From an uncultured Gemmatimonadales bacterium (GTDB taxonomy: Bacteria > Gemmatimonadota > Gemmatimonadetes > Gemmatimonadales > Gemmatimonadaceae), in assembly GCA_963701965.1 (NCBI GenBank), contig OY969695.1:2048001-2112000 (forward strand): DNA of 64,000 bases. The letters run 5' to 3'. A program made the position numbers and the translations under genes. A model generated the notes under the pieces. The model had not been told where the DNA came from. It made no database searches and saw only the letters and a list, made by a program, of their open reading frames with translations. Positions 1,029 to 22,086 of this stretch are shown in pieces (the stretch's first letter is position 1; the number at the start of each line of letters is the position of its first letter).

Positions 1029-2755
1029 CGCCCGCCGTCCTCGCCGACCCGGCGCTCGTACGCGCTCAGAATGTGCGCCCGGCTGATCATCCCGACAAGC
1101 CGGTCGCCGTCCACGACGGGCACGGCCGCCGCGCCGCGGGCGCCCATGCGGCGCAAGGCGCTCATGAGGGACTCGTCCGGGCCGACGGTCTCCGACGTCT
1201 GCGAGATATCGATCGCCCGCAGCAGCGGATCGATGTCCCGCGCCGCGGCCGCGACGCGTCCGAGATCGCCCGTGGTGACGACGCCGATGAGGCGCCGCTC
1301 GGCATCGACGACGGGAAAGACGGATTGGTCGGAATACCGGAGATGCGCGACCAGCACGGCGACCGGGGCCCCTTCGTCGATCGCGGCGGGCGCTGGATCG
1401 TATGCATCACGCACGTGGAGGCCGCTCAACACGTCCTGGTCGGCGCCGTGCTCGATCGACTCGCCGCGGCGCCGCAGCCACCCGCTGTACAGCGAATCTG
1501 GCTCCAACCGCCGGGCGACGACGTGGGCGATCACCACCGTCAGCATGAGCGGCAGTACGATCGCGTAGTCGCCGGTCATCTCGAACACGAGCAGGATGCC
1601 GGTAATCGGCGCGTCGGTCGCGCCGGCGATCATGGCGCCCATCCCGACGAGCGCATAGGCCTCCGGATGCACACCGAGGCCGGGGAAAAGCCGCTCCAGC
1701 AAGGCGCCGAGGCCGCCGCCGGTCGCGGCGCCGACGTAGAGTGACGGCGTAAACACGCCGCCCGATCCGCCGCCGTTGAGCGTGATCGATGTCGCGATGA
1801 TGCCACCGCCGGCCAACGCCAGGAGCAGGTACCACGGGAGACGGCCGAACATCTCGACGTGGATCGCCAAGTGTCCGTAGCCCACGAGGAGACCACCGGA
1901 GAGCCATACGAGCGCGCCGACGAGCGCGCCGGCTAGCAGCGGCACGACGGGCGCCGGAAGCCGGGCCCGCAAGCGCTTGGCGATGGCGTCCGTCGCGAAG
2001 TACGTCCGCACGAAGAGGACGGCGACCAGACCGATCACCACGCCCAGGACCGGGAACGCCAGCAAGACTTCGCCGATGGAGCCGTAGCCGTACGGCGCGG
2101 GAATCGGGAACGCGGGATGGTTGCCGAACACCGCGCGGGAGACGACGGCGGCAACGACGCTGGAGACCACGACCGGCGAGAAGGATCCCACGGCCAGCGA
2201 CCCCACGATCTCCTCGAGCGCGAAGAACGCGCCGGCCAACGGCGCATTGAACGCGGCGCTGATGGCGGCGCCGCACGCGCACCCGACGAAGACGACGACG
2301 CGCTCGGGCGTGAAGCGGAACGCTTTGCCGAGGGCCGAGCCAATGGCGGCGCCGAGGACCACGACGGGACCCTCGCTGCCGGCGGACGCGCCGCTCCCGA
2401 TCGTGATGGCGCTGGCCAGCGTGCGGGCCAGCGCCGGACGGGTGGCCACATCGCCCCCGCGTCGCACCACCGCGAGTTGCACGTCGGGCACATTCATGCC
2501 GTCGTGTCCGCGCCCCAGGCGGCGCATGATCCACCAGGCGACGACCATCCCGACGCCGGTCATGAGCGGCCGGTAGACTAGGTCGCTCTCCCGGCTCAGG
2601 AACGCGATATAGGAGAGATCGATCGCGCGGTAGAAGGCGACGACGCCCAGCGCGCTGAGCACGCCGATGAGGACGGCAAAGCCGAGCAGGATCGCGTGTT
2701 CGCTGAGCTCCTGCGCGTTGAACCATTCGACGAATCGGCGCCAGGCGCGTCGCAT
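1025..2755 (-). CDS. CLC family chloride channel/H+ antiporter with C-terminal CBS pair
   Basis: GSEGP, AFNAPLAG..FALEE, GGVFTP, SLYS motifs, CBS-like tail; start chosen at ATG 2755 from TACATT-N7-ATG. Confidence 0.9.
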   Translation of the reverse strand: MRRAWRRFVEWFNAQELSEHAILLGFAVLIGVLSALGVVAFYRAIDLSYIAFLSRESDLVYRPLMTGVGMVVAWWIMRRLGRGHDGMNVPDVQLAVVRRGGDVATRPALARTLASAITIGSGASAGSEGPVVVLGAAIGSALGKAFRFTPERVVVFVGCACGAAISAAFNAPLAGAFFALEEIVGSLAVGSFSPVVVSSVVAAVVSRAVFGNHPAFPIPAPYGYGSIGEVLLAFPVLGVVIGLVAVLFVRTYFATDAIAKRLRARLPAPVVPLLAGALVGALVWLSGGLLVGYGHLAIHVEMFGRLPWYLLLALAGGGIIATSITLNGGGSGGVFTPSLYVGAATGGGLGALLERLFPGLGVHPEAYALVGMGAMIAGATDAPITGILLVFEMTGDYAIVLPLMLTVVIAHVVARRLEPDSLYSGWLRRRGESIEHGADQDVLSGLHVRDAYDPAPAAIDEGAPVAVLVAHLRYSDQSVFPVVDAERRLIGVVTTGDLGRVAAAARDIDPLLRAIDISQTSETVGPDESLMSALRRMGARGAAAVPVVDGDRLVGMISRAHILSAYERRVGEDGGR

Positions 2756-2764
2756 TGTGTGCAA

Positions 2765-2782
2765 TGTATCGGGGCCGATGTA
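2765..2782. promoter_or_regulatory. Imperfect palindrome TGTATCG-GGGC-CGATGTA between divergent -10 boxes; candidate MarR operator
   Basis: Lies in a 38-bp gap between divergent CLC and MarR starts and touches both TANNNT boxes. Confidence 0.5.
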
Positions 2783-2793
2783 ACTTGCGCCGC

Positions 2794-3282
2794 ATGAGCG
2801 GGGTGAAGGAGAGCGACGTCCGGGCGACGCTCGACGCGATCCGTCGCCTGGTGCAGTCCCTGCGCGCGAGCGCCCGGCGCTCGAAAGCGGTCTCAGGACT
2901 GACGACCGCCGAGTTGTTCGTGGTGCACGCCCTGGTCGAGTCGCCGGCGCGGTCCCTCAATGAGCTGGCGGCGCGGACCTACACCGACCAGAGCACGGCG
3001 TCGCCCATTGTCGAGCGGTTGCGGCATCGGGGTCTCCTCCGACGCGAGCGGTCGGCCGACGACGGCCGGCGGGTCGTCATCGCGCTCACCGCGGCGGGCC
3101 GGGCGGCGGTGTCGCGGTTGCCGGAGTCGCCGCAGAGCGCGATGATCGCGGCGCTCGAGCGGCTGCCGCTCCGCGAGCGCCGCGCGTTGGCGCGCGGCCT
3201 CACGGCGCTGATCTCCGAGATGGGGCTGTCGGAAAAACGGCCGACAATGTTGTTCGACGAGCCGGCGTCGGGCGGTCGCTGA
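2794..3282 (+). CDS. MarR family transcriptional regulator
   Basis: SLNELAA..DQSTAS..VERL...GLL.R..DGRRVVIALTAAGR winged helix; TAACTT-N7-ATG. Confidence 0.9.
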   Translation: MSGVKESDVRATLDAIRRLVQSLRASARRSKAVSGLTTAELFVVHALVESPARSLNELAARTYTDQSTASPIVERLRHRGLLRRERSADDGRRVVIALTAAGRAAVSRLPESPQSAMIAALERLPLRERRALARGLTALISEMGLSEKRPTMLFDEPASGGR

Positions 3283-3300
3283 GCGGCGCGCCGGCGCCGG

Positions 3301-3858
3301 CTACTGGCCCTGGGGCGCGGTCAGGGCGCTGCCGCCCGCCGTGATCTCGAACTGATCGTTGCGATTTTGGGACCACGACTGCTCGTTGTCCCCCTGGGCG
3401 ATCGGACGCTCCTTCCCATAGCTGATGGTCGCGATCCGCGCGCCGGCGATCCCATGTTCGCCCAGGTACCGCTTCGCGGCCTCGGCCCGCCGCTGCCCCA
3501 GGACGAGGTTGTACTCGTCGGAGCCGCGATCGTCGCAGTTGCCGGCGACGCGGAGGGCCAAGCCGGGGTTGGCGGCGAGGATCGGCACCTTGGCATCCAG
3601 CGTCGTCTGGTCGTCCGCGGTCAGGCTCAATGCGTTGAACGCGAAGTACGTCATCTGCCCCACGACGGCGCGCAGAGCGGCGAGCCGCGAGGCGCCGCCA
3701 TCATCGCTCGCCGTGCGCACGACAGCGGCGGGCGCGGGCGCGGCAGGCGCCGGCAGCGCGGGCGCGGGGGCCGGCGCGGCGGCGACCGGCGCGGGATGAT
3801 GGGCGCAACCAACCACGAGTCCAACCGTGAGCACGAGCGGCAGCACACGCGCAGACAT
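3301..3858 (-). CDS. pal: Pal-like peptidoglycan-associated lipoprotein (OmpA C-terminal domain)
   Basis: Lipobox VVGC, Pro/Ala linker, GNCDDRGSDEYN..LGQRRA, SYGKERP, NRN; no tol genes adjacent. Confidence 0.8.
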   Translation of the reverse strand: MSARVLPLVLTVGLVVGCAHHPAPVAAAPAPAPALPAPAAPAPAAVVRTASDDGGASRLAALRAVVGQMTYFAFNALSLTADDQTTLDAKVPILAANPGLALRVAGNCDDRGSDEYNLVLGQRRAEAAKRYLGEHGIAGARIATISYGKERPIAQGDNEQSWSQNRNDQFEITAGGSALTAPQGQ

Positions 3859-3870
3859 GAAAGGCTCCGT

Positions 3871-3890
3871 TTATATTGATGTCAATCTAA
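3871..3890. promoter_or_regulatory. AT-rich palindrome TTATATTGA-TG-TCAATCTAA, candidate operator
   Basis: 8/9 inverted match in an AT island between divergent genes. Confidence 0.5.
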
Positions 3891-3974
3891 TAAGGTCGGG
3901 CCCGGTTCGCCAGACTGACCATGGCCCTTCGCATCGCCCTGGCACGGCGTCGTTTTCACTGCTTTCATAGACGG

Positions 3975-5324
3975 GTGCTGTTTCAGCGAATCTTCGAAGG
4001 GAAGCTGGCCCAGGCGAGCTTCCTCGTCGGCTGCACACGCACGGGTCAGGCGCTGGTGGTGGACCCGACGCGCGCGGTCGATCAGTACATCCAGGCCGCC
4101 GAGGCGGCCGGCGTGCGCATCACGCACGTCACGGAGTCGCACATCCACGCCGACTTCGTGTCGGGAAGTCGCGATCTGGCGGCGCGCACCGGCGCGCGCC
4201 TTTTGCTCCCCGCGCGCGGCGACTATGGCTTCCCCGGTACGCCGCTCGCCGGCGGCGATACGTTCGCGCTCGGTGACCTCCGCGTCAATGTGCTGGACAC
4301 GCCCGGGCACACGCCAGAGCACCTGACGTTCCTGCTCACCGACATCACGTCCGGCGATCGTCCGTGGGCCGCGCTCACCGGCGACTTCCTGTTCGTCGGC
4401 AATGTCGGCCGTCCGGACTTGCTGGAGCGGGCTGCACGCATACCGGGGGCGGCTGTCGTCGGCGCGGAGGCGCTCCACGCGTCGCTGCAACGCTTTCGGG
4501 CGCTCCCCTGCGACCTGCAGATCTGGCCGGGCCACGGCGCGGGCTCGGCCTGCGGCAAGGCGCTGAGCGCGGCGCCCAGCGCAACGCTCCGCGCCGAGAT
4601 TGTGGGCAACTGGGCGTTTCAGCTCGGCAATGTCGCGACGTTCACCGCCGAGGTCCTCGCCGGTCAACCGGAACCGCCGCGCTACTTCGCGGTGATGAAG
4701 CGCGTCAACCGCGAGGGACTCCCTCCGCTTGCCGCGCTCCCCAACCCGCCCGCGTTCGATCGCGCGCCCGCGGGCGCTGTCACGATCGACATTCGCGCGA
4801 CGAGCGGACTGGTGCCGGGTTCGCTCAAGATCCCGTTGTCCAACGCGTTCCCCACCCGGGCGGGCTCGGTCGTGCCCTACGACGCCGACATCGCGCTCCT
4901 CGCCGCCGACGCGGCCACCGCCCGCGAGGCCGCGCGCGACCTGTCGCTCATCGGGCTTGATCGCGTCGTCGGATGGCTGGCGCCCGGGGGCGCCGAGATC
5001 CCGATGCCGTCGATCGACATCAATGCCCTCGCCGTCATGCTGCGCGCGGGGTCGGTGACGCTGATCAATGTCCGCGATCCGGCGGAGTGGCAGGCGGGCC
5101 ACATCGAAGGGGCCATCCACCTTCCGTTGGCGACGCTCGCCGACCACATCGCGGAAATCCCGACGGGACGTCCGGTGGCGGTGCACTGCCAGGGCGGCGC
5201 ACGGTCGGTCACGGCGGCCAGCGTGCTATCGGCCCACGGCGTGCGCGACGTGCGCAACGTGGCCGGTGGGTTCGCCGCCTGGCAGGGCGCCGGAAAGCGC
5301 GTCCGTCGCGACGATAGGGACTAG
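3975..5324 (+). CDS. MBL-fold persulfide dioxygenase-like protein fused to rhodanese domains
   Basis: ESHIHADF, TPGHTPEH, GDFLFVG.VGRPDL, PGHGAGSACG, C-terminal HCQGGARS; GTG start inferred. Confidence 0.85.
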   Translation: MLFQRIFEGKLAQASFLVGCTRTGQALVVDPTRAVDQYIQAAEAAGVRITHVTESHIHADFVSGSRDLAARTGARLLLPARGDYGFPGTPLAGGDTFALGDLRVNVLDTPGHTPEHLTFLLTDITSGDRPWAALTGDFLFVGNVGRPDLLERAARIPGAAVVGAEALHASLQRFRALPCDLQIWPGHGAGSACGKALSAAPSATLRAEIVGNWAFQLGNVATFTAEVLAGQPEPPRYFAVMKRVNREGLPPLAALPNPPAFDRAPAGAVTIDIRATSGLVPGSLKIPLSNAFPTRAGSVVPYDADIALLAADAATAREAARDLSLIGLDRVVGWLAPGGAEIPMPSIDINALAVMLRAGSVTLINVRDPAEWQAGHIEGAIHLPLATLADHIAEIPTGRPVAVHCQGGARSVTAASVLSAHGVRDVRNVAGGFAAWQGAGKRVRRDDRD

Positions 5325-6922
5325 GGCTGGGGGCTATTGAGCGCTTGGAAGGCCCGATAGGCGTTCACAATGCCGCCGGTCGTCGACAGCGACGAAAACG
5401 GCACGCGCTCCCCGTTGGTGGAACCCGGTCGCACCACCATCTGGTCATACCGCGTCGCCGATTTGAGGATGACCTTCTTGAGGTCGGCAGCCGAGAGATC
5501 GGGATAGTAATCCAGGATGAGCGCCGCCAGGCCCGTGACCACCGGCGCCGCCATACTCGTCCCGCTATCGCGCTCGTACGTGTTGCCAGGCACCGTCGAC
5601 AGGATATCGACGCCCGGCGCGAAGACGTCCACGCGGCTCTGACTATAGTTGCTGAACGACGCCGCCAAGCTGTCGCCGCCGGACCACGACGACGCGCCGA
5701 CTTCGATCCAGTTCCGGGCGTGCCCGCTGTCGGCGTACGCCGGCGTCGGAAAGTTCGCATGCGTGTCCAGGTTCTCGCCGTCGTTGCCGGCGGCGTGGAC
5801 CATGAGCACGTTGTGGGCATCGGCGTACCGCACGGCCTCGTCCACCGCACCCTTCTCCGGCGAGTACCCTTTCCCGAAGCTCATGTTGATCACGCGCGCG
5901 CCGTGGTCGACGGCGTAGCGGATCGCGTTGGCGATGTCCTTGTCGCGCTCGTCGCCGTCCGGCACCGCGCGGATCATCATGATGTGCACCGCGGGCGCGA
6001 TCCCGTCGATGCCCACCCCGTTGCCGCGCACCGCGCCGATGATGCCGGACACGTGGGTCCCGTGCTTGGCATCCGGGCCCATGACATCGCTGTTGCCGTA
6101 GTGCGACTGGTGCACATCGGCGTAGTTGTCGCCGACAATGGGCCGCGGGTCGAACGACGTATTGAGCGCATAGTCGAGGCGCGACTGCAACTGGGTGATC
6201 GCGTCGGCGATCGCGGCGGCGGTCGCGCCGTGCGTCTCCAACGCCAAGTAGATCTGCCGCGCGCGCCCGATGGTGCTGTCGGTCGGATCGAGCGCTTGCA
6301 CGCTACCGACGCTCAGCGAATCCGTCCGCATCTGCTGCCGCAACACATCGGTCGCCCGCTGGCGCGCGCTGGAGAGCTCCTTGAGCTGCTGCAACTGCCG
6401 CTCGGCCTGGCCATGCCGCGCCGCCAGATCGCTCTCCAGGTGCGTGCACTGCGACGCCAGTGTCGTCGGCAACGTATCCGGACCGCTGGCCTGTTGGTGG
6501 CGGCAGCGGATCACCAGCCGCGTCAGCTCATACGTGTCCCAATGGACGTCGCGCCCGTCGGCGCCGCCAATGAAGTCCCACCCACGCTGGGCGTTGAGAT
6601 TGGCGCGCAGATCGGCGTGCGCGGTGTCAATGCCGCCGTCGATGACGGCCACGACGACGGGCGCTTTGGGCGCCCGGCCCGCAAGCAGCTCCTTCTCGGC
6701 CCGCGCGACGCTGATGCCCGGCACGTGATCGACGCTCTCATCGAGCAACTGCCAGTCGCGCGGCGCTTCCTTGAGTCCCGACGAGGGCGCGGCGCTCGGC
6801 GCGGCGGGTGCCACGGCCACCGGCGCCGGGTGGGGCGTGGTCGACGGCGCGGTCGAATGACAGGCGCCGACGAGGATCAGAATGGTGGCGAGCCAGACGG
6901 CAGAGACGGGACGGGGCATCAT
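5321..6922 (-). CDS. S8 subtilisin-family serine peptidase, lipoprotein
   Basis: VAVIDGG, HGTHVSG, AAGN, GTSMAAP catalytic motifs; lipobox VGAC. Confidence 0.93.
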   Translation of the reverse strand: MMPRPVSAVWLATILILVGACHSTAPSTTPHPAPVAVAPAAPSAAPSSGLKEAPRDWQLLDESVDHVPGISVARAEKELLAGRAPKAPVVVAVIDGGIDTAHADLRANLNAQRGWDFIGGADGRDVHWDTYELTRLVIRCRHQQASGPDTLPTTLASQCTHLESDLAARHGQAERQLQQLKELSSARQRATDVLRQQMRTDSLSVGSVQALDPTDSTIGRARQIYLALETHGATAAAIADAITQLQSRLDYALNTSFDPRPIVGDNYADVHQSHYGNSDVMGPDAKHGTHVSGIIGAVRGNGVGIDGIAPAVHIMMIRAVPDGDERDKDIANAIRYAVDHGARVINMSFGKGYSPEKGAVDEAVRYADAHNVLMVHAAGNDGENLDTHANFPTPAYADSGHARNWIEVGASSWSGGDSLAASFSNYSQSRVDVFAPGVDILSTVPGNTYERDSGTSMAAPVVTGLAALILDYYPDLSAADLKKVILKSATRYDQMVVRPGSTNGERVPFSSLSTTGGIVNAYRAFQALNSPQP

Positions 6923-8178: not shown

Positions 8179-9795
8179 TCACCCGCGCGCCGCCGGCACA
8201 ATCAGGGTGAACGTGGACCCGACGCCGACTTCACTGGCCGCCGTGAGATCGCCGCCCATCGAGCGCGCCAGATCCCGACTGATCGCGAGGCCCAGTCCTG
8301 TCCCTTGCCCGATCGTCGTGCGATCGCTGCCCAGCTGCACAAAAGGCTCGAAGATCACGTCCAGGCGCTCCGCCGGTATCCCGATGCCCGTGTCGCTGAT
8401 CGTCACGCACACGTGGTCTCCCTCGACCGCCCAGGCCAGCGTGACGCGCCCGCCGCGCGGCGTGAACTTGGTCGCGTTGCTCAGCAGATTCAGCACGATC
8501 TGCTGCACCTTGTCGCGATCGGCGCGGGCGCGCACCGGCGCGACACGCTTGTCGACGCGCACGTCGAGCGCGAGGGCCTTGGCCAGCATCTGCGGCACCA
8601 CGAGGGGTCGCACGTCGTCGAGCACGTGCTGGACGTCGAAATCGGTGACCGCGAGCCGCAGGCTGCCCGCCTGCACCTTGGCGAAATCGAGCACCGCGTT
8701 GATGAGACCGAGGAGCAGTTCCTGGGCGCGCTTGATGCGATCGAGCGCTTCGACCTGTTTGGGCAACAGCGGACCATAGATGCCGTCGGCGATCAACTGG
8801 GTGAACCCCCCGATGGCGTTGAGCGGTGTGCGCAACTCGTGGCTCATCGTTGCCAGAAACTCGCTCTTCGCCCGGTTAGCCGCCTCGGCCTCCATCCGCG
8901 CCCGGTCCGCATCGGCGCGCGCCGCCTCCAGCGCGCGTTCGGCCGCCTTGCGATCCGTGATGTCGCGGAGGACGAGCACCGCCCCGACGGCGGCGCCCGG
9001 CGGCGCCCCCTCGACACGGTCGGCCCGGATGCGCGCGACGCGCGCGTCGACGGGCACCCGCCGCCCGTCGGCGCCGCGCAGCACCATGTCGGCTTGCGAC
9101 ACGGCGGTGCGCCCGGCGAGCACTTGCGCGAGCCGCTCATGCAAGGCGGGCCCCTCCCCGCCTTCCGGCACGACGTCGGCGACATTGGCCAAGGCGTACC
9201 CCGTCGCGTTGGACATCGTGCGCCCGGTCAATTCCTCGGCCGCACGGTTCAGGAACGTCACACGCCCATGCGCATCGGTGGTCACCACGGCGTCGCCGAT
9301 GCTCCGCAACGCCGTCGACGCCCACGCCTGTCCCGCGTGCAGAGCCCGCTCGGCGCGGTGGACGCGCACGGCGGCCCGGATCACCGCTTCCAGGCGGTCG
9401 GCGCTCAAGCTGCCGTCGGCCGTGCCCTTGGGAAGAAAATCGACAGCGCCGCCCTTCATCTGGGCGACGGCGATCTCGGGGTCGTTCTGACCGGTGAGCA
9501 TGACGACGGGCGCATCGACGCCCAGCCGCCGCGCCTCGCGGATGAACTCCAGTCCCGAGTGCCCGGGGAGCCGATTGTCGAGCAACACGCAGTCGAACCG
9601 GCGTCCCTTGAGAGCGGCCAGCGCCGCCTCGGCGGTCGTGGCTTCCTCAATGTCGGCTCTGAGGGCCGTCGCCGCCAATGCCCGGCGGACGGCCATGCGG
9701 TCCACGTCGTCGTCGTCGACGACGAGGAGCCGGAGGGTCACATCATCGGGGGTCACGGAGGACTCGGTCCACGTGAGGTCGGGTCGCGCGCTCAT
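8179..9795 (-). CDS. Hybrid sensor histidine kinase (REC-PAS-HisKA-HATPase)
   Basis: LLVVDDD, LLDNRLP, FLPK; SIGDAVVTTD PAS; MSHELRTPLN; NLLSNA.KFT, DTGIG, GLGL; start uncertain. Confidence 0.9.
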   Translation of the reverse strand: MSARPDLTWTESSVTPDDVTLRLLVVDDDDVDRMAVRRALAATALRADIEEATTAEAALAALKGRRFDCVLLDNRLPGHSGLEFIREARRLGVDAPVVMLTGQNDPEIAVAQMKGGAVDFLPKGTADGSLSADRLEAVIRAAVRVHRAERALHAGQAWASTALRSIGDAVVTTDAHGRVTFLNRAAEELTGRTMSNATGYALANVADVVPEGGEGPALHERLAQVLAGRTAVSQADMVLRGADGRRVPVDARVARIRADRVEGAPPGAAVGAVLVLRDITDRKAAERALEAARADADRARMEAEAANRAKSEFLATMSHELRTPLNAIGGFTQLIADGIYGPLLPKQVEALDRIKRAQELLLGLINAVLDFAKVQAGSLRLAVTDFDVQHVLDDVRPLVVPQMLAKALALDVRVDKRVAPVRARADRDKVQQIVLNLLSNATKFTPRGGRVTLAWAVEGDHVCVTISDTGIGIPAERLDVIFEPFVQLGSDRTTIGQGTGLGLAISRDLARSMGGDLTAASEVGVGSTFTLIVPAARG

Positions 9796-9935
9796 GAGGC
9801 GGTACGGATCCAGGGCACGCGGCGAGTCGGGCGCAAATCCGGGACCGTGCTCGGTAGCCACATGGTCTGATCTACCCCAGCCGGCGCTGTATGAGCGGTT
9901 GAGCACGGTGCCCGGACGGTACATCTTGGGGGCCG

Positions 9936-11759
9936 ATGATGATGAGACTGGCGCGCGTGGGACCGACCGTGCTGGTCGGGGTGGTGACGGTGCTGGCCTG
10001 CGCCGCTGCCTCGCCGCACGTCCGCTGGCTCATGGCGGCCGCCGGTGCCGTCGCGGTCGGGCTCTCGGCGCTCTCCGTGGCAACGTCGGCCGGCGTCGCC
10101 GCATCGGCGCGCCTGGCGCTCATGGCCGAGCAGCGCTTCCTCCGGCAGATCATCGACATCGACCCGAACTTCCTCTTCGCCAAGGATCGGCGGGGCCGCT
10201 TCACGCTGGTCAACCAGGCGGTAGCCGCGGCGTACGGGACGTCGATCGAAAACCTGATCGGCAAGAGCGACGCGGACTTCAACGCGAACGCGGACGAAGT
10301 CGAATTCTTTCGGCGCATCGATCGCCAAGTGCTGGAGTCGGGGCGCCCGCTGATGATTCCGGAAGAACGGATCACGGATGCCTCCGGCAACGTCCGATGG
10401 TTGCAGACCGTCAAATGTCCCATCTTCGGCGAGGACGGACGCGTCGAGCAGGTGCTGGGCGTCTCGACCGACGTCACGGAACGCAAGCGCATCGAGGTCG
10501 CCTTACGCGCCGAGGGGGTCCGCGTGCGGGCGATGCAGCGGGTGACGGCCGGTCTCTCGGCGGCCGCCACGGCGAAGGACGTCGCACGCATTGTCACGAC
10601 GGAGGGGTCGCACGTCGTGGGCGCGCAAGCGGGGTCGGTCGGGGTGCTGGCCGCGGATGGCGCGTCATTCGAGCTGCTCGCCATGACGGGCGTCGCGGAC
10701 GAACTGCACCAGCAATGGCGCCGCTTCCCGAATCGGCGCGGCTTGCCGTTCCCGGAGGTGGTCGCCTCGGGCGACCCGATCTTCATTACGACGCGGGCCG
10801 AGTACGTCGCGCGCTTTCCGACGCTGGCCCAGACGCTGGAGGCCAATCCTTCGCTCAGCGCCGCGGCGATCCTGCCCCTTATGGTAGAAGGACGCGCGCT
10901 GGGCGGCCTGGGGTTCGATTTCACGGCGCCGCGGAATTTCGACGATGGCGACGTGGCGCTGCTGACGACGTTGGCGCGCCAATGCGCGCAGGCGCTCGAG
11001 CGCGCCCGGTTGTTCGAGGCCGAACGCACGGCGCGCAACGACGCCGAGCGCGTGCGGCAGCGCGCCGACGAGGCCAATCAGGCCAAGTCGGCGTTCCTGG
11101 CGACCATGAGCCACGAGCTGCGGACGCCGCTCAACGCCATCGCGGGATACGTCGAATTGCTGGAGATGGGGATTCGCGGCCCGGTGACGGACACTCAACG
11201 CGAAGATCTCGGCCGCATCCGCCGCGCCGGGGAGTACCTGCTCGGCTTGATCAATGACGTGCTCAACTTTGTCCAGCTGGAGAGCGCCGGCGTGCGCTAC
11301 GCGCTGCGCGACGTCCCGGTGGATCGGGCGTTGCGCGAGGCGGCATCGCTCATCGAACCGCAGGCCCGCCGGAAAGGCGTCGTCTTCTCCCGCGAGCCCT
11401 GCGATCCGGTGCTGACGGTCCGCGCCGACCCGGACAAGGTGCAGCAGGTGATCCTCAACCTGTTGTCCAATGCCGTGAAGTTCACGCCCGAGGGCGGGCA
11501 TACGACGCTCCGGTGCCGCGTGCACGACGGTCTCGTCGACATGATCGTGCAGGACACGGGGCGGGGCATTCCCCACGACAAGCTCGATCAAATCTTCGAG
11601 CCGTTCGTGCAGGTGGGCCGCGAGCTGCGCAATCCCTCGACAGGCGTGGGACTGGGATTGGCGATCAGCCGGGAGCTGGCGCGCGGGATGGGCGGAGAAT
11701 TGACGGCCGCGAGCGAGCTGGGGTCGGGATCGACCTTCACTTTCACGCTTCCCGCCTGA
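9936..11759 (+). CDS. Sensor histidine kinase (TM-PAS-GAF-HisKA-HATPase)
   Basis: FAKDRRGRF PAS, GAF ending QCAQALERARLFE, MSHELRTPLN, N/G boxes. Confidence 0.92.
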   Translation: MMMRLARVGPTVLVGVVTVLACAAASPHVRWLMAAAGAVAVGLSALSVATSAGVAASARLALMAEQRFLRQIIDIDPNFLFAKDRRGRFTLVNQAVAAAYGTSIENLIGKSDADFNANADEVEFFRRIDRQVLESGRPLMIPEERITDASGNVRWLQTVKCPIFGEDGRVEQVLGVSTDVTERKRIEVALRAEGVRVRAMQRVTAGLSAAATAKDVARIVTTEGSHVVGAQAGSVGVLAADGASFELLAMTGVADELHQQWRRFPNRRGLPFPEVVASGDPIFITTRAEYVARFPTLAQTLEANPSLSAAAILPLMVEGRALGGLGFDFTAPRNFDDGDVALLTTLARQCAQALERARLFEAERTARNDAERVRQRADEANQAKSAFLATMSHELRTPLNAIAGYVELLEMGIRGPVTDTQREDLGRIRRAGEYLLGLINDVLNFVQLESAGVRYALRDVPVDRALREAASLIEPQARRKGVVFSREPCDPVLTVRADPDKVQQVILNLLSNAVKFTPEGGHTTLRCRVHDGLVDMIVQDTGRGIPHDKLDQIFEPFVQVGRELRNPSTGVGLGLAISRELARGMGGELTAASELGSGSTFTFTLPA

Positions 11760-11863: not shown

Positions 11864-11879
11864 CGGCGTGCCGCTTGCC
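11864..11879 (+). promoter_or_regulatory. Candidate sigma54 (-24/-12) promoter
   Basis: cGGcgtgccgcttGC: GG 11865-66, N10, TTGC ending 11878, about 30 nt before ATG 11911. Confidence 0.5.
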
Positions 11880-11910
11880 TTGATACCGGCCAACCTCGGT
11901 CAGGACTACT

Positions 11911-12522
11911 ATGCGCTTCTTCCAATCGTACAAAACCGCGACAGTGAGCCTCGTAATCGCCGGCGCCGGCCTAGTGGCTTGCAGCGGCGAGACTGGTGAA
12001 CCCCTGGCTCCTGCGACGCCGGCCGCCCAAGCGGCGCCGGTGACCACGCTCTCCAACCCTCAGACGCAGAAGGCCCAGGACCTCAGTGGTCTCCTCGGCC
12101 TCCTGGGGATCGGGAGCAAGCCCGATCTCTTCGTCTGTACGAACAACGGCGGCCCGTACAAGGGCTCCGCGACCATCGGCTTGCTCGGTGGCACGGTGCA
12201 CTTCGGCCCCCACACGTTGGCGGTGCCGCCGTTGGCGGTGCTCAAGCCGACGTTGATCACGGCGACGACCGTCGCCGGCGACACGCTGGCGGCGTCGTTC
12301 ACGCCGGCCGGTACCAAGTTCCTGGTGCCGCCGACGCTGACGCTCGACTACTCGCATTGCGCGAACAAGCCCCAGGGCTCGCTCGGCATCGACTTCCTGG
12401 ACGACCTGCTGACGCAGATCCTGGAGCTCTTGCCGGCGATCGACAACGGCGGCGGTCAGGTACACGCCCCGATCTGGCACTTCTCGGTCTACGCGGCGTC
12501 GGAGACGCGCCGCGCGCGGTAA
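11911..12522 (+). CDS. Lipoprotein with ZU5-like domain ending in HFS motif
   Basis: Lipobox LVAC; IG..GGT...G.HTLAVPP.A, F.PAG..F..P.TLTL.Y, IWHFSVYA match ZU5 pattern by eye. Confidence 0.65.
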   Translation: MRFFQSYKTATVSLVIAGAGLVACSGETGEPLAPATPAAQAAPVTTLSNPQTQKAQDLSGLLGLLGIGSKPDLFVCTNNGGPYKGSATIGLLGGTVHFGPHTLAVPPLAVLKPTLITATTVAGDTLAASFTPAGTKFLVPPTLTLDYSHCANKPQGSLGIDFLDDLLTQILELLPAIDNGGGQVHAPIWHFSVYAASETRRAR

Positions 12523-12523
12523 G

Positions 12524-14101
12524 ATGACCGAAGCGACGGTCGAAACCGCGCCCAGTCGGGCGCGGCAGCTCCTCGCCGTCGCGAGGGAACGAGAGCGCGC
12601 GGGACGATTGGACGCGGCGGTCGAGGATTATATCTCGGCCGCCGCGAGCGCTGGGACGGATCTCGCGGACGTGGAGGCGCGGTGCGAAGCCCTGCGCCGC
12701 CACGCGTCGATTCGGCGACGCCGCCAGGAGTTCGGGGCCGCGATCGCGTTGTGCGAGGAGAGCTATCACACGGCGATGGCCGCGCATCTCGACCTCATGG
12801 CCTCGCACGCGCTGAACGGTCTCGGCTTCGCGCATTTGGAGCGGGCCGACCTGACGGCCGCGGCCGACGCGTTCGAGCGGGCGCTGACGCTGGGCGGCCA
12901 CGATCCGACGGCCCGGGCGCACATCGAGGGGAATCTCGGCGTCGTCGCCAACGTGCGCGGCGATTTCGCGACGGCCCTCAGTCGCTACAAGCGGTCGCTG
13001 GCGGCGTTCGAGGCGGTGGGCGACGATCGGGGCCGCGCGGTGACGAACCACAACCTGGGCATGATCAGCGCCGACCTCAAGGACTGGGCGACGGCCGACC
13101 TGTACTACGCCGCGAGCCTCGCGCTGGCGGAGTCGATCGGGGACCGGCAGCTGCGCACCTCGGTGCTGCTCAACCGGTGCGAGATCCACTTGGGGCGCCA
13201 GCGGTACGAGGACGCCAGAGCGGGCGCCGAGGAGGTCCTGAACATCCTCGACGAGCTGGGCATCCGCCAAGGTCGATCGGAGGCCTACAAGTTCCTCGGC
13301 ATGATGTACCGCGAGACGGGCGCGCCGGCGTTGGCCGAGTCGCGCCTACGCTCGGCCATCAAACTGGCATCCGATGTCGGCGTCGGTCTGGAAGAAGCCG
13401 AAGCGACGCGCGAGTTGGCCGTCTTGTACCAGCAGCTCAATCGCAACCAGGATGCGCTGACGCTGCTCAACACCGCCCACCGGCTGTTCCACCGGCTGGG
13501 CGCCAAGGCCGACCTACAGGACGTCACCACCAAGGTCTCCGACCTCGAGCGGATCTATCTCGACCTCGTGGCCTCGTGGGGCCGCTCGATCGACTCGGCG
13601 GACGCGTACACCCACGGCCACTGCGAGCGCGTGGCGTCGTACGCGACGGCGGTCGCCGTGGAGCTGGGGCTCAACGAAGCGACGGTAACGGCGGTGCGCG
13701 TCGGCGCCTACCTCCACGACGTCGGCAAGGTCAAAGTCCCCCACGAGATCCTGAACAAGCCCGGCAAGCTCACCGAAGCCGAGTTCGAGATCATGCAGCA
13801 GCACACCGTCTATGGCGTGGAGCTGCTGGCGTCGGTCGAGTTTCCGTGGCAGGTCAAGCCGATCATCCGGTCCCACCACGAAAAGCTCGACGGCACCGGG
13901 TATCCCGATCGCCTGAAGGGCGACGAGGTGCCGCTGACCGCGCAGATCATCGGCATCGTCAATGCCTACGACGCGATGACCACGACGCGCAGCTACCGCG
14001 CGGCGCGCTCCGGGGCCGAGGCGATCGCCGAGATCAAGCGGTGCGCCCACTGGTGGCGCCCCAATGTCGTCGCCGCTTTTCTCGCTACCGCGCCGCGATG
14101 A
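12524..14101 (+). CDS. TPR-repeat HD-GYP cyclic-dinucleotide phosphodiesterase
   Basis: Repeated N(G/N)LG TPR helices; YTHGHCERVA, LHDVGK, HHEKLDGTGYP. Confidence 0.9.
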   Translation: MTEATVETAPSRARQLLAVARERERAGRLDAAVEDYISAAASAGTDLADVEARCEALRRHASIRRRRQEFGAAIALCEESYHTAMAAHLDLMASHALNGLGFAHLERADLTAAADAFERALTLGGHDPTARAHIEGNLGVVANVRGDFATALSRYKRSLAAFEAVGDDRGRAVTNHNLGMISADLKDWATADLYYAASLALAESIGDRQLRTSVLLNRCEIHLGRQRYEDARAGAEEVLNILDELGIRQGRSEAYKFLGMMYRETGAPALAESRLRSAIKLASDVGVGLEEAEATRELAVLYQQLNRNQDALTLLNTAHRLFHRLGAKADLQDVTTKVSDLERIYLDLVASWGRSIDSADAYTHGHCERVASYATAVAVELGLNEATVTAVRVGAYLHDVGKVKVPHEILNKPGKLTEAEFEIMQQHTVYGVELLASVEFPWQVKPIIRSHHEKLDGTGYPDRLKGDEVPLTAQIIGIVNAYDAMTTTRSYRAARSGAEAIAEIKRCAHWWRPNVVAAFLATAPR

Positions 14102-14445: not shown

Positions 14446-14871
14446 CTAGCGGCCTGTGACGATTCGCTCCAGTCGGGCCCGATAGGTGCGGCTCACGCGC
14501 AGCCGGGTGCCGTCGCGGAGGATCGCGTATGCGTCGCCGTGATAAAAGGGCTGGATCTCGGCGATACGGGCAATGTTCACGACGGTGGAGCGGTGCAGGC
14601 GGGCGAAAAGCGTGGGGTCCAATCGCCGTTCGATGCCGGCGAGCGGCTCGCGCACGCGGTGGCCGGCGGCGCCGACGTGCAGGATGATCGTGTCATCGTC
14701 GGCCTCGATCCAGTCGATGGTCCGCTGATCGAAGACCCGCATCCGGTCGCCGACCTTGACCCCTAGTCTCGGGGGAGCCGCCGATCCCCGGTCCTGCCCG
14801 GCGCGGGCCCGGGCCCGCTCCACGGCCTCGATGACGCGCGACGGACGGAGGGGTTTGAGGAGGTAGTCCAT
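14446..14871 (-). pseudogene. LytTR response regulator remnant lacking most of the receiver domain
   Basis: Begins at MDYLLKP (end of REC); IDWIEA, FARLHRSTVVN, VSRTY LytTR domain. Confidence 0.7.
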
Positions 14872-15539
14872 GGCGTCTCGATGACGACGTCGGTGCCGCG
14901 CCGGCCCGCGGCGACATGGTCAGGGTGCCGCCGTCGCCGTACAGGCAGGCGAGCCGGCGCCGCGTGATGTCGAGCCCCGTGCCGAGCCCGTGCGTCGGCC
15001 CCACGATGCCGGCGCCATCGTCGCTGACGCGCATCCGGAGGGCGTCACCCGTGCGCGCGATGGTGACGGACACCTGGCCGCCGTCGACGCGCGGGGCGAT
15101 GCCGTGACGGATCGCGTTGTCGACGACGGGTTGCAGAATGAATCGCGGCACCAGGGCTGCCGCGGCGTCGGGCTCCACCGTGCAGGAGATCTGCAAGCGG
15201 TCCGAAAACCGGATGCGCTCGATGGCCAGGTACTCCTCGATGAACCGCATCTCTTCCCCGGCTGGCACCTCGTGGGAGGCGCCGGGCGCCAGCAACTGGC
15301 GCAACAGGCCGCCGAGTCCGTGCAGGACATCCATGGCCTCGGCATTGCGCTTGGTCATGACCAGCGCGCTGATGGTGTTCAGCGTGTTGTACAGGAAATG
15401 CGGTTGCAGCTGTGCCTGGAGGGCGCGCAGGTGGGCGTCGGCCAACTGCTCGCGATGGGTGTGCCGATCGCCGGCCCACACGGCCAGCTGGCCGAGCGCT
15501 ACAATGAGGAAGTACACGAGCAACGCGGTGTGGAACCAT
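14868..15539 (-). pseudogene. LytS-type histidine kinase remnant (N-terminal deletion, frameshift near 14900)
   Basis: AQLQPHFLYNTLN, IRFSDRL, ILQPVVDNAIRHG; ATG 15539 is out of frame; tail GTDVVIETPW in a shifted frame. Confidence 0.7.
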
Positions 15540-19291: not shown

Positions 19292-20412
19292 AAACGGTCG
19301 GCATCGTCTCCCTCGTGGTCGTGGGGCTGCTCGCGGCCGGGATCATTCCCCGACTGCAGCGCAAACAGGAGTTGGAAGCCGAAGCCGCATCCATCCACGG
19401 TGCCCCACGGGTGAACGTCGTGGTCGTCGGCCACGGCGCGGCGACGTCGAACCTGGCGCTTCCCGGCTCGATCGAAGCGCTGCACCAGACGCCGATCTAT
19501 GCACGGTCCACCGGATACGTGGCGCGGTGGATGACGGACATCGGCGCCCGCGTCACCAACGGCCAGTTGCTAGCCGAGATCGAGTCGCCGGACCTGGATC
19601 ATCAGGCGGACCAGGCCAAGGCCGACCTGGCCCAGTTGAACGCCAACCTGACGCTCGCCAAACGCACGCTCGTGCGGTGGCAGGAGATGGCCAAGGACTC
19701 GGTCGTGACGGAGTTCGACGTCGACACGAGGCAGGCGGCGTATGACGCCGCGGTCGCGTCGCTCAAAGCGGGGCAAGAGAATTACGGGCGCCTCGCACAG
19801 TTGCAGCGCTACGAGCGCGTCGTAGCCCCGTTCACCGGGGTCGTCACCTCCCGCAACGTGGACAACGGCACGCTGGTGACGGCGGGGACGGCGGCGGCCA
19901 CGCCGCTCTTCACGGTGGCGGGCACCGATACCGTACGCATTTACGTCAGCGTGCCGCAGAGCGCCATGTCGCTCGTGCACCCGGGGCAGACGGCCGAGGT
20001 CTCGGTAGGAGAGTTGGCCCAGAAGGCGTTCCAGGGGAAGGTGATCCGCAACGCGCGGGCGCTCGATGCGGGCTCGCGGACGCTGCTCACCGAAATCCAG
20101 ATCGCGAACCCCAAAGGCGAGCTGTTGCCGGGCATGTACGCGGACGTCCGGTTCCTGATCACGAGCACGGACCCGACGATCGTCATTCCCGCCAACGCGC
20201 TCGTGGTGCGCAGCGACGGACCGCAGGTCGCGCTCATCGGGCGCGGCGACGTCGTGCACTATCAGAAAGTACAGCTGGGCCGGGACTTCGGGAGTCAGGT
20301 GGAGATCACCTCCGGACTGGAGTCAGGCGCGCGGCTGGTCGTGAACCCGGGCAATGACATCCGCGAAGGGGTCACCGTGGCGGCGCTGCCCCTGGTCACC
20401 GATACGAAGTAA
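19288..20412 (+). CDS. RND periplasmic adaptor (membrane fusion protein)
   Basis: IYARSTGYV..DIGARV, APFTGVVT.RNVD, LLPGMYA; ATGA overlap. Confidence 0.93.
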   Translation: MKTVGIVSLVVVGLLAAGIIPRLQRKQELEAEAASIHGAPRVNVVVVGHGAATSNLALPGSIEALHQTPIYARSTGYVARWMTDIGARVTNGQLLAEIESPDLDHQADQAKADLAQLNANLTLAKRTLVRWQEMAKDSVVTEFDVDTRQAAYDAAVASLKAGQENYGRLAQLQRYERVVAPFTGVVTSRNVDNGTLVTAGTAAATPLFTVAGTDTVRIYVSVPQSAMSLVHPGQTAEVSVGELAQKAFQGKVIRNARALDAGSRTLLTEIQIANPKGELLPGMYADVRFLITSTDPTIVIPANALVVRSDGPQVALIGRGDVVHYQKVQLGRDFGSQVEITSGLESGARLVVNPGNDIREGVTVAALPLVTDTK

Positions 20413-21100
20413 CGTCGAGCCGCGCTTTCACCGCGGCCCGGCGGCGCTCGCTGATCTCGAGGCGGGTGCCATCGCGCAGGATGACCGTGTGCCGCCCCCG
20501 AAGCTCGCGGATGTGGGCCACGCTCACCAGCGCCGAGCGATGTACCCGCACGAAGAGCCGGGGATCGAGCTCGGATTCCAACAGGCGCAGCGACCGGCGG
20601 ACGAGATGAGATCCCCCTGGGACGTGCAAGCGCGCATAGTAGTCATCGGCCTCGATCCACGCGATCGTGTCCACGGTCACGATCGTCGTACGCGAGCCGG
20701 AGGCCACCAGAAAATGCGCGCGATAGCCGGCGTCACTCGTCGCCACTAACCGGCGGGCGCGATCGATCGCGCGAAAAAACCGGTCATCCGTAAAGGGCTT
20801 GACGACAAAATCCAACGCGTCCGCGTCAAAGGCGCGCACCGCGAACTCGTCGAACGCGGTGACCAACACGACGGCGGGCGGACAGTGGGGGACGAGCGCG
20901 CGGAGCACGCCGAACCCGTCGAGATCCGGCATCTGAATGTCGAGCAACAGGAGTTGCGGATCGTGGGCCCGGACCGCGGCGACCGCTTCGATGCCGTTGC
21001 CACACTCGGCGACCACGACAATGTCACTGTAGCGGGCCAGCAACCCGCGCATGACGTCCCGCGCCAGCGGCTCGTCGTCGACGAGGACCGCCCGGATCAC
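20396..21100 (-). CDS. LytTR family response regulator
   Basis: VDDEPLAR, LDIQMPDLDGF, TAFDEFA, FVRVHRS; GTGA overlap with kinase. Confidence 0.92.
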   Translation of the reverse strand: MIRAVLVDDEPLARDVMRGLLARYSDIVVVAECGNGIEAVAAVRAHDPQLLLLDIQMPDLDGFGVLRALVPHCPPAVVLVTAFDEFAVRAFDADALDFVVKPFTDDRFFRAIDRARRLVATSDAGYRAHFLVASGSRTTIVTVDTIAWIEADDYYARLHVPGGSHLVRRSLRLLESELDPRLFVRVHRSALVSVAHIRELRGRHTVILRDGTRLEISERRRAAVKARLDVTSYR

Positions 21101-22086
21101 GTCGCCCGCACCGGTCGGTACGGGAGTTGAATCGCCGCGACCGCCCCGCCCTCGGGCGCCCGCCCCAGCGACAGCGTGGCCGCCTTGCCGCACGCATGCA
21201 GCAGACGGGCCCGCGTGGCGGACAGACCGAGGCCCGGCGCGGCGCCATTGGGGCCGGGACCGTCGTCGGTGACGGCGATAACGACGCGGTCGCCATCGCG
21301 GAACGCCGAGATGGTAATGCGCCCGGCGACGCTCGACCGCGCGATCCCATGCCGCACGGCATTCTCGGCCAAGGGCTGCAACAGGAGCCGCGGGACGGCC
21401 GCGTCCTCGGCTTCGGCTGCGATCCGCCATTCGACGCGCAACCGGTCGGAAAACCGCACTTGCTCGATCCCGAGATACCGGCGGAGAAAGGCGATCTCCT
21501 CGCGCAGCGGGACTTCCTCCGGCGCGCCCCGCGCGAGCAGCGCCCGCAGCAGATCGCTCAACTCCGCGATCACCAGAATCGCGCCATCGTGATCCCGCGC
21601 ACGGACGAGCGCGCCTACGGAATGGAGCGCGTTGAACAGAAAATGCGGGTGGAGATGGGCGCGCAACGCGGCCAGCTCGGCCCGCGCCAGCTGCGCTTCG
21701 CCCGTGCGGGCCCGCCCGAAGAACAGGATCGCCACGTATAAGGCGCCCGCAATCGGCAGAAAGCCAATGGTCACGCGCGCGAGATACGCGGGCCACGGCT
21801 GGAGCAACGCCGCGCGGGCCACGAACACCGTCGTGGTCGCGTACACGGTCCCCCGCAACGCCGACGCGACCAGGATCGCCGCGGCGTGGAGCGCGTAGGC
21901 GCGCGGGTAGCGCGCCCCCAGCCGTAAGACGACGGGTGTCAACGGCACCCACAGGTACCACTCGGCCAGGGCCGGAACCAGCGCCCGGAAAGGGACCAGT
22001 GCTGCGCCGCTCAAGTAGGCGGCGATCTCGACGTCGAGCGCCATGAGCCATGCCGCCAGCGACCACACGCCCATCACGAACCACAT
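21097..22086 (-). CDS. LytS-type membrane sensor histidine kinase
   Basis: TM N-term, HLHPHFLFNAL, RFSDRL, LLQPLAENAVRHG. Confidence 0.92.
   Translation of the reverse strand: MWFVMGVWSLAAWLMALDVEIAAYLSGAALVPFRALVPALAEWYLWVPLTPVVLRLGARYPRAYALHAAAILVASALRGTVYATTTVFVARAALLQPWPAYLARVTIGFLPIAGALYVAILFFGRARTGEAQLARAELAALRAHLHPHFLFNALHSVGALVRARDHDGAILVIAELSDLLRALLARGAPEEVPLREEIAFLRRYLGIEQVRFSDRLRVEWRIAAEAEDAAVPRLLLQPLAENAVRHGIARSSVAGRITISAFRDGDRVVIAVTDDGPGPNGAAPGLGLSATRARLLHACGKAATLSLGRAPEGGAVAAIQLPYRPVRAT

Follow-up and report, generated by a model that had tools for sequence, protein, structure and literature searches.

A ZU5-type lipoprotein gene abutting a TPR-HD-GYP gene in Gemmatimonadota, a candidate peptide-signalling pair

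Intracellular peptide signalling via TPR receptors has been described for Bacillota and their mobile elements, where RRNPP systems such as Rap-Phr, NprR-NprX and PlcR-PapR place the gene of an exported precursor next to that of a cytoplasmic TPR protein (PMC10075063). Here we describe two adjoining open reading frames (ORFs), ORF1 and ORF2, in a stretch of 64,000 nucleotides (nt) of contig OY969695.1 from an uncultured Gemmatimonadales bacterium, referred to as the window. ORF1 encodes a predicted ZU5 lipoprotein that ends shortly after a His-Phe-Ser motif, and ORF2 a cytoplasmic protein with TPR repeats and an HD-GYP domain. The pairing of such genes is far above chance. On balance, we regard it as probable that the pair forms an RRNPP-like peptide-signalling unit with a self-maturing precursor and an output through cyclic di-GMP (c-di-GMP).

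The module and RRNPP systems share the order of an exported precursor gene adjoining a cytoplasmic TPR gene, with a 1 nt gap here and direct adjacency in 55 of the 70 clusters discussed below (RRNPP range, -60 to 400 bp). They also share a C-terminal peptide of about 7 residues, for which import through an oligopeptide ABC transporter (Opp) would apply here as well, a TPR part that resembles Rap and NprR in fold (Z 18.6-21.0), and intragenic duplication of the peptide, as found in RRNPP propeptides (PMC10075063). RRNPP precursors are propeptides of 10-100 aa that are cut by exopeptidases, whereas ORF1 is a folded lipoprotein of 203 aa with its own cut site (PMC10075063). RRNPP precursors are secreted by Sec and trimmed by exopeptidases; ORF1 has a signal peptide, of the lipoprotein type, and its maturation is predicted to be autocatalytic. 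RRNPP receptors have 250-500 aa; ORF2 has 525 aa with the enzyme at its C-terminus, and its stand-alone TPR relatives, at about 330-400 aa, lie within the range. The TPR part is N-terminal in ORF2 and ranks nearer to LGN/Pins than to Rap, the outputs comprise HD-GYP, doubled TPRs and TPRs that stand alone, in many cases next to a sigma-54 activator, and the host belongs to Gemmatimonadota instead of Bacillota. With two of these tested properties, precursor and receptor length, out of range, the module is not a member of RRNPP.

ORF1 shares its fold and the His-Phe-Ser motif with PIDD1, Nup98, the FIIND of NLRP1 and CARD8 and bacterial toxin ZU5 domains (PMC9162469, PMC8081665, PMC3482391), and self-cleavage at HF|S has been demonstrated for PIDD1 and Nup98 (PMC9162469). 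In these sources, the known autoproteolytic ZU5 proteins carry cargo after the cut or are large surface proteins, none being described as an isolated domain or as the partner of a TPR gene, and bacterial ZU5 is described only in large toxin and surface proteins (PMC3482391). Cleavage at HFS has also been demonstrated for the bacterial MAIN domains, which are likewise exported and are cut ahead of the last strand of a related beta-sandwich (bioRxiv 10.64898/2026.05.12.724683). MAIN proteins have a mean mass of 158 kDa, release an N-terminal cargo and keep a C-terminal anchor (bioRxiv 10.64898/2026.05.12.724683). ORF1 has the signal peptide and the HXS/T motif in a GAIN-B-like fold, and differs in its N-terminal lipid anchor, in the lack of both N-terminal cargo and C-terminal surface anchor (it ends 12 residues past the cut), and in that the piece set free would be the C-terminal strand. 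According to the MAIN preprint, no signalling role is known for the C-terminal fragment, and its main text, as available, mentions neither ZU5, TPR and HD-GYP nor Gemmatimonadota (bioRxiv 10.64898/2026.05.12.724683). The GAIN domains of adhesion G-protein-coupled receptors (GPCRs) are similar in fold (CD97, Z 8.6) and cut register, and the 7-residue last strand resembles their tethered agonist. That agonist remains joined to its seven-transmembrane receptor, whereas the ORF1 tail is proposed to be a free peptide for a separate cytoplasmic protein. A literature search that covered few subscription papers returned no paper on a ZU5 lipoprotein/TPR pairing. A 2014 paper reportedly treats GAIN, ZU5 and Nup98 and may list family members, as may the supplementary tables of the MAIN preprint with its 15,000 MAIN homologues.

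Fold and predicted cut site of ORF1

The features of the two genes, all on the + strand, are as follows.

11911..12522, +, ORF1, ZU5 lipoprotein gene (P0001, 203 aa), from sequence, homologues, AlphaFold 2 (AF2) model and fold matches
11911..11982, +, signal peptide ending in lipobox L-V-A-C24, from sequence; Cys24 in 77/79 homologues
12124..12504, +, ZU5 domain, about residues 72-198, from the AF2 model and its Z of 11.2 to ankyrin ZU5
12478..12486, +, His190-Phe191-Ser192, predicted autoproteolysis site with cut F|S, from 79/79 homologues and structural alignments
12484..12519, +, 12-residue tail, candidate signal peptide, first 7 residues forming the last beta-strand, from model and homologues
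12524..14101, +, ORF2, cytoplasmic TPR-HD-GYP gene (P0002, 525 aa), from sequence, domain matches and model; maximum KD19 1.0
12557..13501, +, eight TPR helix pairs with a candidate peptide groove, from the model; conserved R58, N98, N137, N177, D184, N217
13556..14089, +, HD-GYP domain, Y/F subfamily, from an HD/HD_5 domain match, an intact GYP motif and the fold

P0001 by itself matches no family in Pfam or NCBIfam, its best hit in a PDB sequence search has an E of 0.26, and its profile search gives weak ZU5 matches only (E 1.9 and 4.9). The ZU5 pattern claimed for the mature protein in an earlier note on this DNA is invisible at this level, and emerges from the homologues and the predicted fold. 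Pfam ZU5 (PF00791) is matched by 22 of the 79 aligned homologues at E<=0.1. Foldseek with the ORF1 model gives 11 matches at E<=0.001, each of them a ZU5 chain, and in a wide structural search (VIA) ankyrin ZU5 ranks top (Z 11.2, root-mean-square deviation 3.0, 116 aligned), followed by UNC5b (Z 8.7) and the CD97 GAIN domain (Z 8.6); GAIN chains match at Z 5.3-8.6, below ZU5. Because the homologues match PF00791 and the predicted fold matches ZU5, we assign ORF1 to the ZU5 superfamily, whose beta-sandwich and H-x-S/T/C motif ahead of the last strand it contains. The signal peptide is followed by a linker modelled with low confidence and by a compact domain that closes with HFS and the tail, with AF2 confidence values (pLDDT) of 84-98 across residues 71-200. 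Cys76 and Cys150 are each present in 71/79 homologues and are likely to pair as a disulfide, which fits an exported, disulfide-bonded domain.

H190, F191, S192 and Y194 are invariant in the 79 aligned homologues. Over 425 pooled sequences, a pool biased towards HFS since one scan required HFS and the hidden Markov model was built on that scan, the nucleophile column holds Ser in 416, Thr in 6 and Cys in 3 cases and never Ala or Gly, and the catalytic His is replaced in six sequences (Gly 5, Gln 1). The structural alignments to 6v55, 8hc0, 7qu8, 8vti, 5kvm, 6x6c and 7crv, which comprise the rat NLRP1 FIIND and six cleaved chains of GAIN domains or human NLRP1, all stop at model residue Phe191, and these chains presumably terminate at their cut sites. 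Since HF|S cutting has been demonstrated in PIDD1, Nup98 and MAIN domains, self-cleavage of ORF1 between F191 and S192 is likely by analogy. The earlier observation of a ZU5-like HFS lipoprotein abutting a TPR-HD-GYP gene is confirmed, down to HFS at 12478-12486, the 12-residue tail behind it, the stop 1 nt before the ATG of ORF2 and the lack of a cargo domain past the cut.

Cys serves as the nucleophile in some ZU5 genes (L274, L280, L284). Variants that lack the His (G-F-S/T, one S-F-T) are found at L036:7200-8012, L037:1247-2305, L039:1777-2457, L100:1454-2074, L213:3424-4086, L218:3-1589, L221:3142-3801 and L223:5268-5810, where each gene has a sigma-54 activator gene on one side and a stand-alone TPR gene on the other. 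These variants may stay uncut or be cut via another route.

The ORF1 profile retrieved 2,344 representatives at E<=1e-10. Among the matches listed, 148 representatives were new, 145 of these more distant sequences fitted the motif expression, and 109 of the 145 end exactly 7 residues past the cut. Most of these ends are a hydrophobic heptad, with the consensus S-x-Y-A-V-A-W/Y. The basic 12-residue peptide of the earlier note therefore holds for the window clade, to which the basic extension is particular, and the usual core of the family is the hydrophobic heptad; 46/79 close homologues have a 10-residue tail. Adhesion-GPCR tethered agonists follow the pattern T-x-F-A-V-L-M. Since the tethered agonist is the same structural strand, conservation of the heptad alone is no proof of a signalling role. 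In seven cases seen by eye, the tail is doubled (L128, L219, L220, L252, L283, P0113, P0186), whereas the ORF1 fold accommodates one strand only. The L252 tail reads SRYVIAF and then SDYVIAW; its partner TPR carries Arg106 and falls among receptors with tails that match this second copy. For both L252 and L283, it is the terminal and not the inner copy that fits the tails of the partner's clade.

A search for longer fused forms of ORF1 gave five weak matches only. At L034:2-2218 and 2349-4967, a long protein with an open frame of at least 739 aa and no Pfam match ends in a ZU5 tail, followed downstream by a TPR-HD-GYP-GGDEF gene and an Opp operon. This long protein might be a version that is pulled open by force.

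Pairing with a TPR gene

The start codon of ORF1 follows AGGA at a distance of 5 bases, and its stop codon TAA (12520-12522) is separated from the ATG of ORF2 at 12524 by a single G. A tail-pattern scan of genome contigs, run on 19 of 64 parts and with a bias towards GC-rich codons, gave 130 loci, 122 of them labelled Gemmatimonadota and 80 with flanks. Among the 8 loci with other labels, two are without ZU5 and the remaining ones are spread over four contigs of 1.6-4.4 kb. The flanked loci contain 76 ZU5 clusters, of which 6 at contig edges were set aside and 70 counted. A TPR gene of one family lies directly downstream of 55 of the 70 clusters (35 with HD-GYP seen), upstream of 3 and elsewhere in the locus for 4. 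With 2 TPR genes of the ORF2 family in the window genome of 5.1 Mb, this pairing is far above chance. Across 41 relatives, both genes are present in 25, the TPR gene only in 1, and neither was found by these searches in 15, so that 25 of 26 genomes having either have both; kin are not independent in this count, and G035, with a match internal to a long protein, and G012 were scored as neither. The gene-neighbourhood survey proposed in the earlier note thus bears out the linkage.

Throughout the phylum, 65/151 genomes match (a count that includes G082). In metagenomes, 22 of 62 pattern loci are true ZU5 genes of the window tail clade, and 18 of these 22 were scored as having a TPR gene next; L347 also has an HD-GYP frame immediately following. 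Searches of plasmids and a protein-based metagenome scan gave no match.

The coupling to HD-GYP that had been proposed from ORF2 holds for part of the family. Among 140 pairs, the partner carries HD-GYP in 84 and a doubled TPR in 12, and no HD-GYP is seen in 44, some of which are cut by locus ends; one partner is a TPR-HD-GYP-GGDEF protein. ZU5 genes also occur in tandem arrays of 2-6, many directly ahead of a single TPR gene. L102, L263, L084 and L038 have 4-6 ZU5 genes with differing tails, ahead of TPR or doubled-TPR genes where seen. The order in L035, L050, L279 and L290 is one or two ZU5 genes, a stand-alone TPR gene, a sigma-54 activator gene and a TPR-HD-GYP gene, which could be a larger circuit feeding back on its own promoter. 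In the same genus as the window, the ZU5 genes at L227:3942-5033 and L228:4762-5352 have 12-residue tails like that of ORF1 and, with no TPR gene in the stretch examined, are orphan precursors within it.

ORF2 has neither an export signal nor a hydrophobic segment. In its model, eight TPR helix pairs precede a long helix that leads into the HD-GYP domain. The closest folds to the TPR part are those of LGN (Z 27.6) and Pins (Z 26.3), whose TPRs bind peptides, and RapH, RapI, a phage Rap and NprR also match it, at Z 18.6-21.0. LGN and Pins outrank Rap and NprR by structure and by profile, helical repeats scoring high generally, and one TPR relative matches RNPP_C below the cut-off. In 67 sequences, R58, N98 and N137 are conserved in all, N177 in 66, D184 in 63 and N217 in 59; these residues would line the TPR groove. 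The HD-GYP domain resembles the phosphodiesterases PmGH, PA4781 and DvhD in fold (Z 22-25.5) and in its HD and GYP motifs, and residues of ORF2 match D183, K225, D308 and R314 (PMC4159591). It differs in its eight-repeat TPR sensor, in an Asn at the D305-equivalent ligand and in its subfamily, the Y/F type, likely with two metals (PMC4159591). Six of the seven shared HD-GYP metal ligands are present. Asp357 was considered for the PmGH E185 site and ruled out, as Tyr362 occupies this site in the manner of the Y/F subfamily.

A candidate peptide signal and its alternatives

Because an exported ORF1 is paired with a cytoplasmic ORF2, a messenger is needed. If the RRNPP-like reading holds, the pair would be transcribed from a sigma-54 promoter and ORF1 would be exported by Sec and lipidated at Cys24. 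An N-O acyl shift as in MAIN domains would cut between Phe191 and Ser192, and the tail would remain in place as the final strand until unfolding or degradation of the scaffold, or until its transfer to an OppA-type lipoprotein. The ZU5 domain would therefore be maturase and capsule in one. The tail would then be imported by Opp, unlinked in the window genome, and bind along the TPR Asn ladder with its positions 2 and 7 setting specificity, and c-di-GMP turnover would be altered on binding in either direction. The signal could pass between cells or report on the own envelope.

Of 71 distinct module regions, 10-11 contain a gene for an oligopeptide-binding protein of family 5, where the density in the window genome predicts 0.24-0.32; seven control families are found in none (3.7 expected together). 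In 9 of 25 module-bearing relatives, such a gene lies within 5 kb of the module against 0.43 expected, from approximate cluster counts. The module-adjoining proteins derive from at least four substrate-binding-protein lineages, and in one clade 8 of 9 members are module neighbours. L303:5105-15132 has a full Opp operon directly upstream of the ZU5 gene and a POT peptide transporter two genes downstream of the module.

A second sign is found in charge. A basic tail position 2 is paired with an acidic TPR position 106 in 57 of 63 pairs, and an acidic tail position 2 with an acidic residue in 0 and with a basic one in 11 of 28; pairs added later gave 16/17 for basic/acidic and 0/12 for acidic/acidic. 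Under a tree-aware measure, TPR column 106 ranks first of 140, and we regard this complementarity as a suggestive sign of pairing. A match between Glu7 and Arg65 (18/18) was dropped as independent evidence since it comes from a single clade. Binding-protein neighbours, charge complementarity and doubled tails together lend indirect support to a peptide signal, and the earlier interpretation is, as a whole, partly supported.

Several points weigh against a released and imported peptide. Its weakest step is tail release. MAIN cleavage products stay tightly associated, with the ectodomain released only with SDS or at 95 C (bioRxiv 10.64898/2026.05.12.724683), and GAIN cut products likewise remain associated. 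Residues 193-198 are modelled as a strand inside the ORF1 fold, which has no adhesion domain to pull on, and the fold by itself can account for the heptad pattern. Variants without the catalytic His still precede TPR genes, 8 of the 70 ZU5 clusters have no TPR gene in the locus, and orphan TPR-HD-GYP genes occur. A binding-protein gene was found neither near the module in the window genome, where the nearest relative of the query lies at a distance of about 540 kb, nor in the 22 loci of the window tail clade, and the family-5 matches score below the NCBIfam cut-offs in a family that also carries nickel, glutathione and other cargo. The tail/TPR covariation that had been suggested as a check appears as opposite charges and is not significant after phylogeny, 7 phylogenetically independent pairs giving 3.4 same, 0.0 opposite and 3.6 unchanged (p=0.25); the first-pass covarying columns 333 and 250 fall to ranks 13 and 24 in the tree-aware measure and are treated as unsupported. 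Finally, ORF2 has Asn480 (codon 13961-13963) at the seventh metal ligand, where 65/67 sequences have Asp. The equivalent exchange D305A in PmGH reduces and does not abolish activity (PMC4159591). An assembly error or a private mutation is plausible, because one contig of a near-identical strain (depth 2.4) reads Asp at codon 480 and the window assembly holds other split genes.

In G003:C12 near 160800-162300 (L002 / L295), a frameshift breaks the TPR-HD-GYP orthologue in two, reflecting either an assembly error or a pseudogene. The window genome itself holds an orphan TPR-HD-GYP gene without a ZU5 gene at G000:C1:456042-457766 (L031). It has Arg65 and Asp106 as in the window clade and may, judged from these residues, read the same peptide as ORF2; a search for a second precursor gene in this genome returned ORF1 only. 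Orphan receptors also occur among Rap proteins.

The retention of the strand within the fold, the bound state of MAIN cut products and the non-significant charge covariation would equally fit a tail that is only a structural strand. The lipoprotein would then bind an envelope target and be tied to the TPR protein by co-regulation or some membrane protein, and a common sigma-54 promoter could hold the genes together. We consider this unlikely, as it leaves unexplained the enrichment of binding proteins, the doubled tails with the clade pattern in the outer copy and the tandem runs of 2-6 ZU5 genes, many of them followed directly by a single TPR gene, and a scan of 12 neighbourhoods showed no conserved membrane gene next to the module. 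Free C-termini are frequent TPR ligands, and the TPR protein might instead bind the C-terminus of the precursor before export, so that the pair reports Sec/lipoprotein export capacity without release or import. The 1 nt gap, the conserved terminal copy of doubled tails and the persistence of His-less variants argue for this mechanism. It is nonetheless distinctly unlikely in our view, as it needs neither a conserved nucleophile, which is S/T/C in 425/425 sequences, nor neighbouring binding proteins, and orphan receptors better suit a diffusible ligand. That a host protease matures the tail as in RRNPP, with HFS as a vestige of the fold, would fit the G-F-S/T variants without catalytic His and an exported subtilisin (S8) lipoprotein gene 5 kb upstream (window 5321-6922), and is very improbable given that HFS is invariant in the 79 closest homologues, that the scanned same-genus loci show no subtilisin at the matching place within 5 kb and that a linked subtilisin as maturase is rejected by 0/71 module regions.

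For the RRNPP-like peptide unit, NLRP1 offers a precedent of release by degradation of its N-terminal ZU5 fragment (PMC8081665). With release of this type, the module could equally be an envelope-stress reporter or a quorum system. If the RRNPP-like reading is true, TPR-receptor peptide signalling would extend to a soil phylum that is abundant and little studied, with another kind of precursor and an output through a second messenger. The MAIN preprint raises the question whether bacterial GAIN-like domains signal through their C-terminal fragment, and the module would speak to this point as well as to how the tethered agonist of adhesion GPCRs arose. Its components are small, and naturally occurring peptide/receptor variants of opposite charge are ready specificity controls. 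More tentatively, and with doubt prevailing, the freed last strand of GAIN/ZU5 domains could be an intercellular hormone in a peptide language of the whole phylum Gemmatimonadota, taken up by way of dedicated Opp binding proteins and decoded by families of TPR receptors that act on c-di-GMP turnover and sigma-54 activators. This would be peptide quorum sensing in a diderm phylum, with a precursor that matures itself.

Promoter and surroundings

One further feature lies upstream of ORF1.

11864..11878, +, predicted sigma-54-type -24/-12 promoter motif, GG-N10-GC, score 5/7

The earlier note had the feature begin at 11864, which coincides with this motif; ORF1 itself starts at 11911. On the 7-point scale, the upstream regions of 40/93 ZU5 genes that are first in their run reach a score of at least 5, compared to 4/30 internal genes and 71/1860 shuffles. 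A sigma-70 promoter was not found at the locus. In the window genome, rpoN is present, together with 13 sigma-54 activator domains of full length and 13 GGDEF matches. Sigma-54 activator genes are present in 4/71 module regions against 1.05 expected, and none adjoins the window copy.

A single RNA-run contig of 258 nt matches 12517-12774 exactly. It is not taken as evidence of expression because it does not bridge both genes and DNA carry-over is possible.

The 3' neighbour of ORF2 is a convergent RidA-type gene and the 5' neighbour of ORF1 a PAS-GAF histidine kinase gene, and gene order around the module is kept in part at same-genus loci. Farther downstream, an RND efflux pair lies between two genes for LytS-type kinases, with a LytTR-type regulator frame behind each kinase gene (window 14446-15523 and 20399-22086); the first regulator frame has 141 aa only and may be truncated or frameshifted. 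The PAS-GAF kinase gene is part of a divergent histidine kinase pair (REC-PAS-HK and PAS-GAF-HK, window 8179-11759) directly upstream of the module, and its counterpart at three same-genus loci, of about 350 aa, is without the kinase part.

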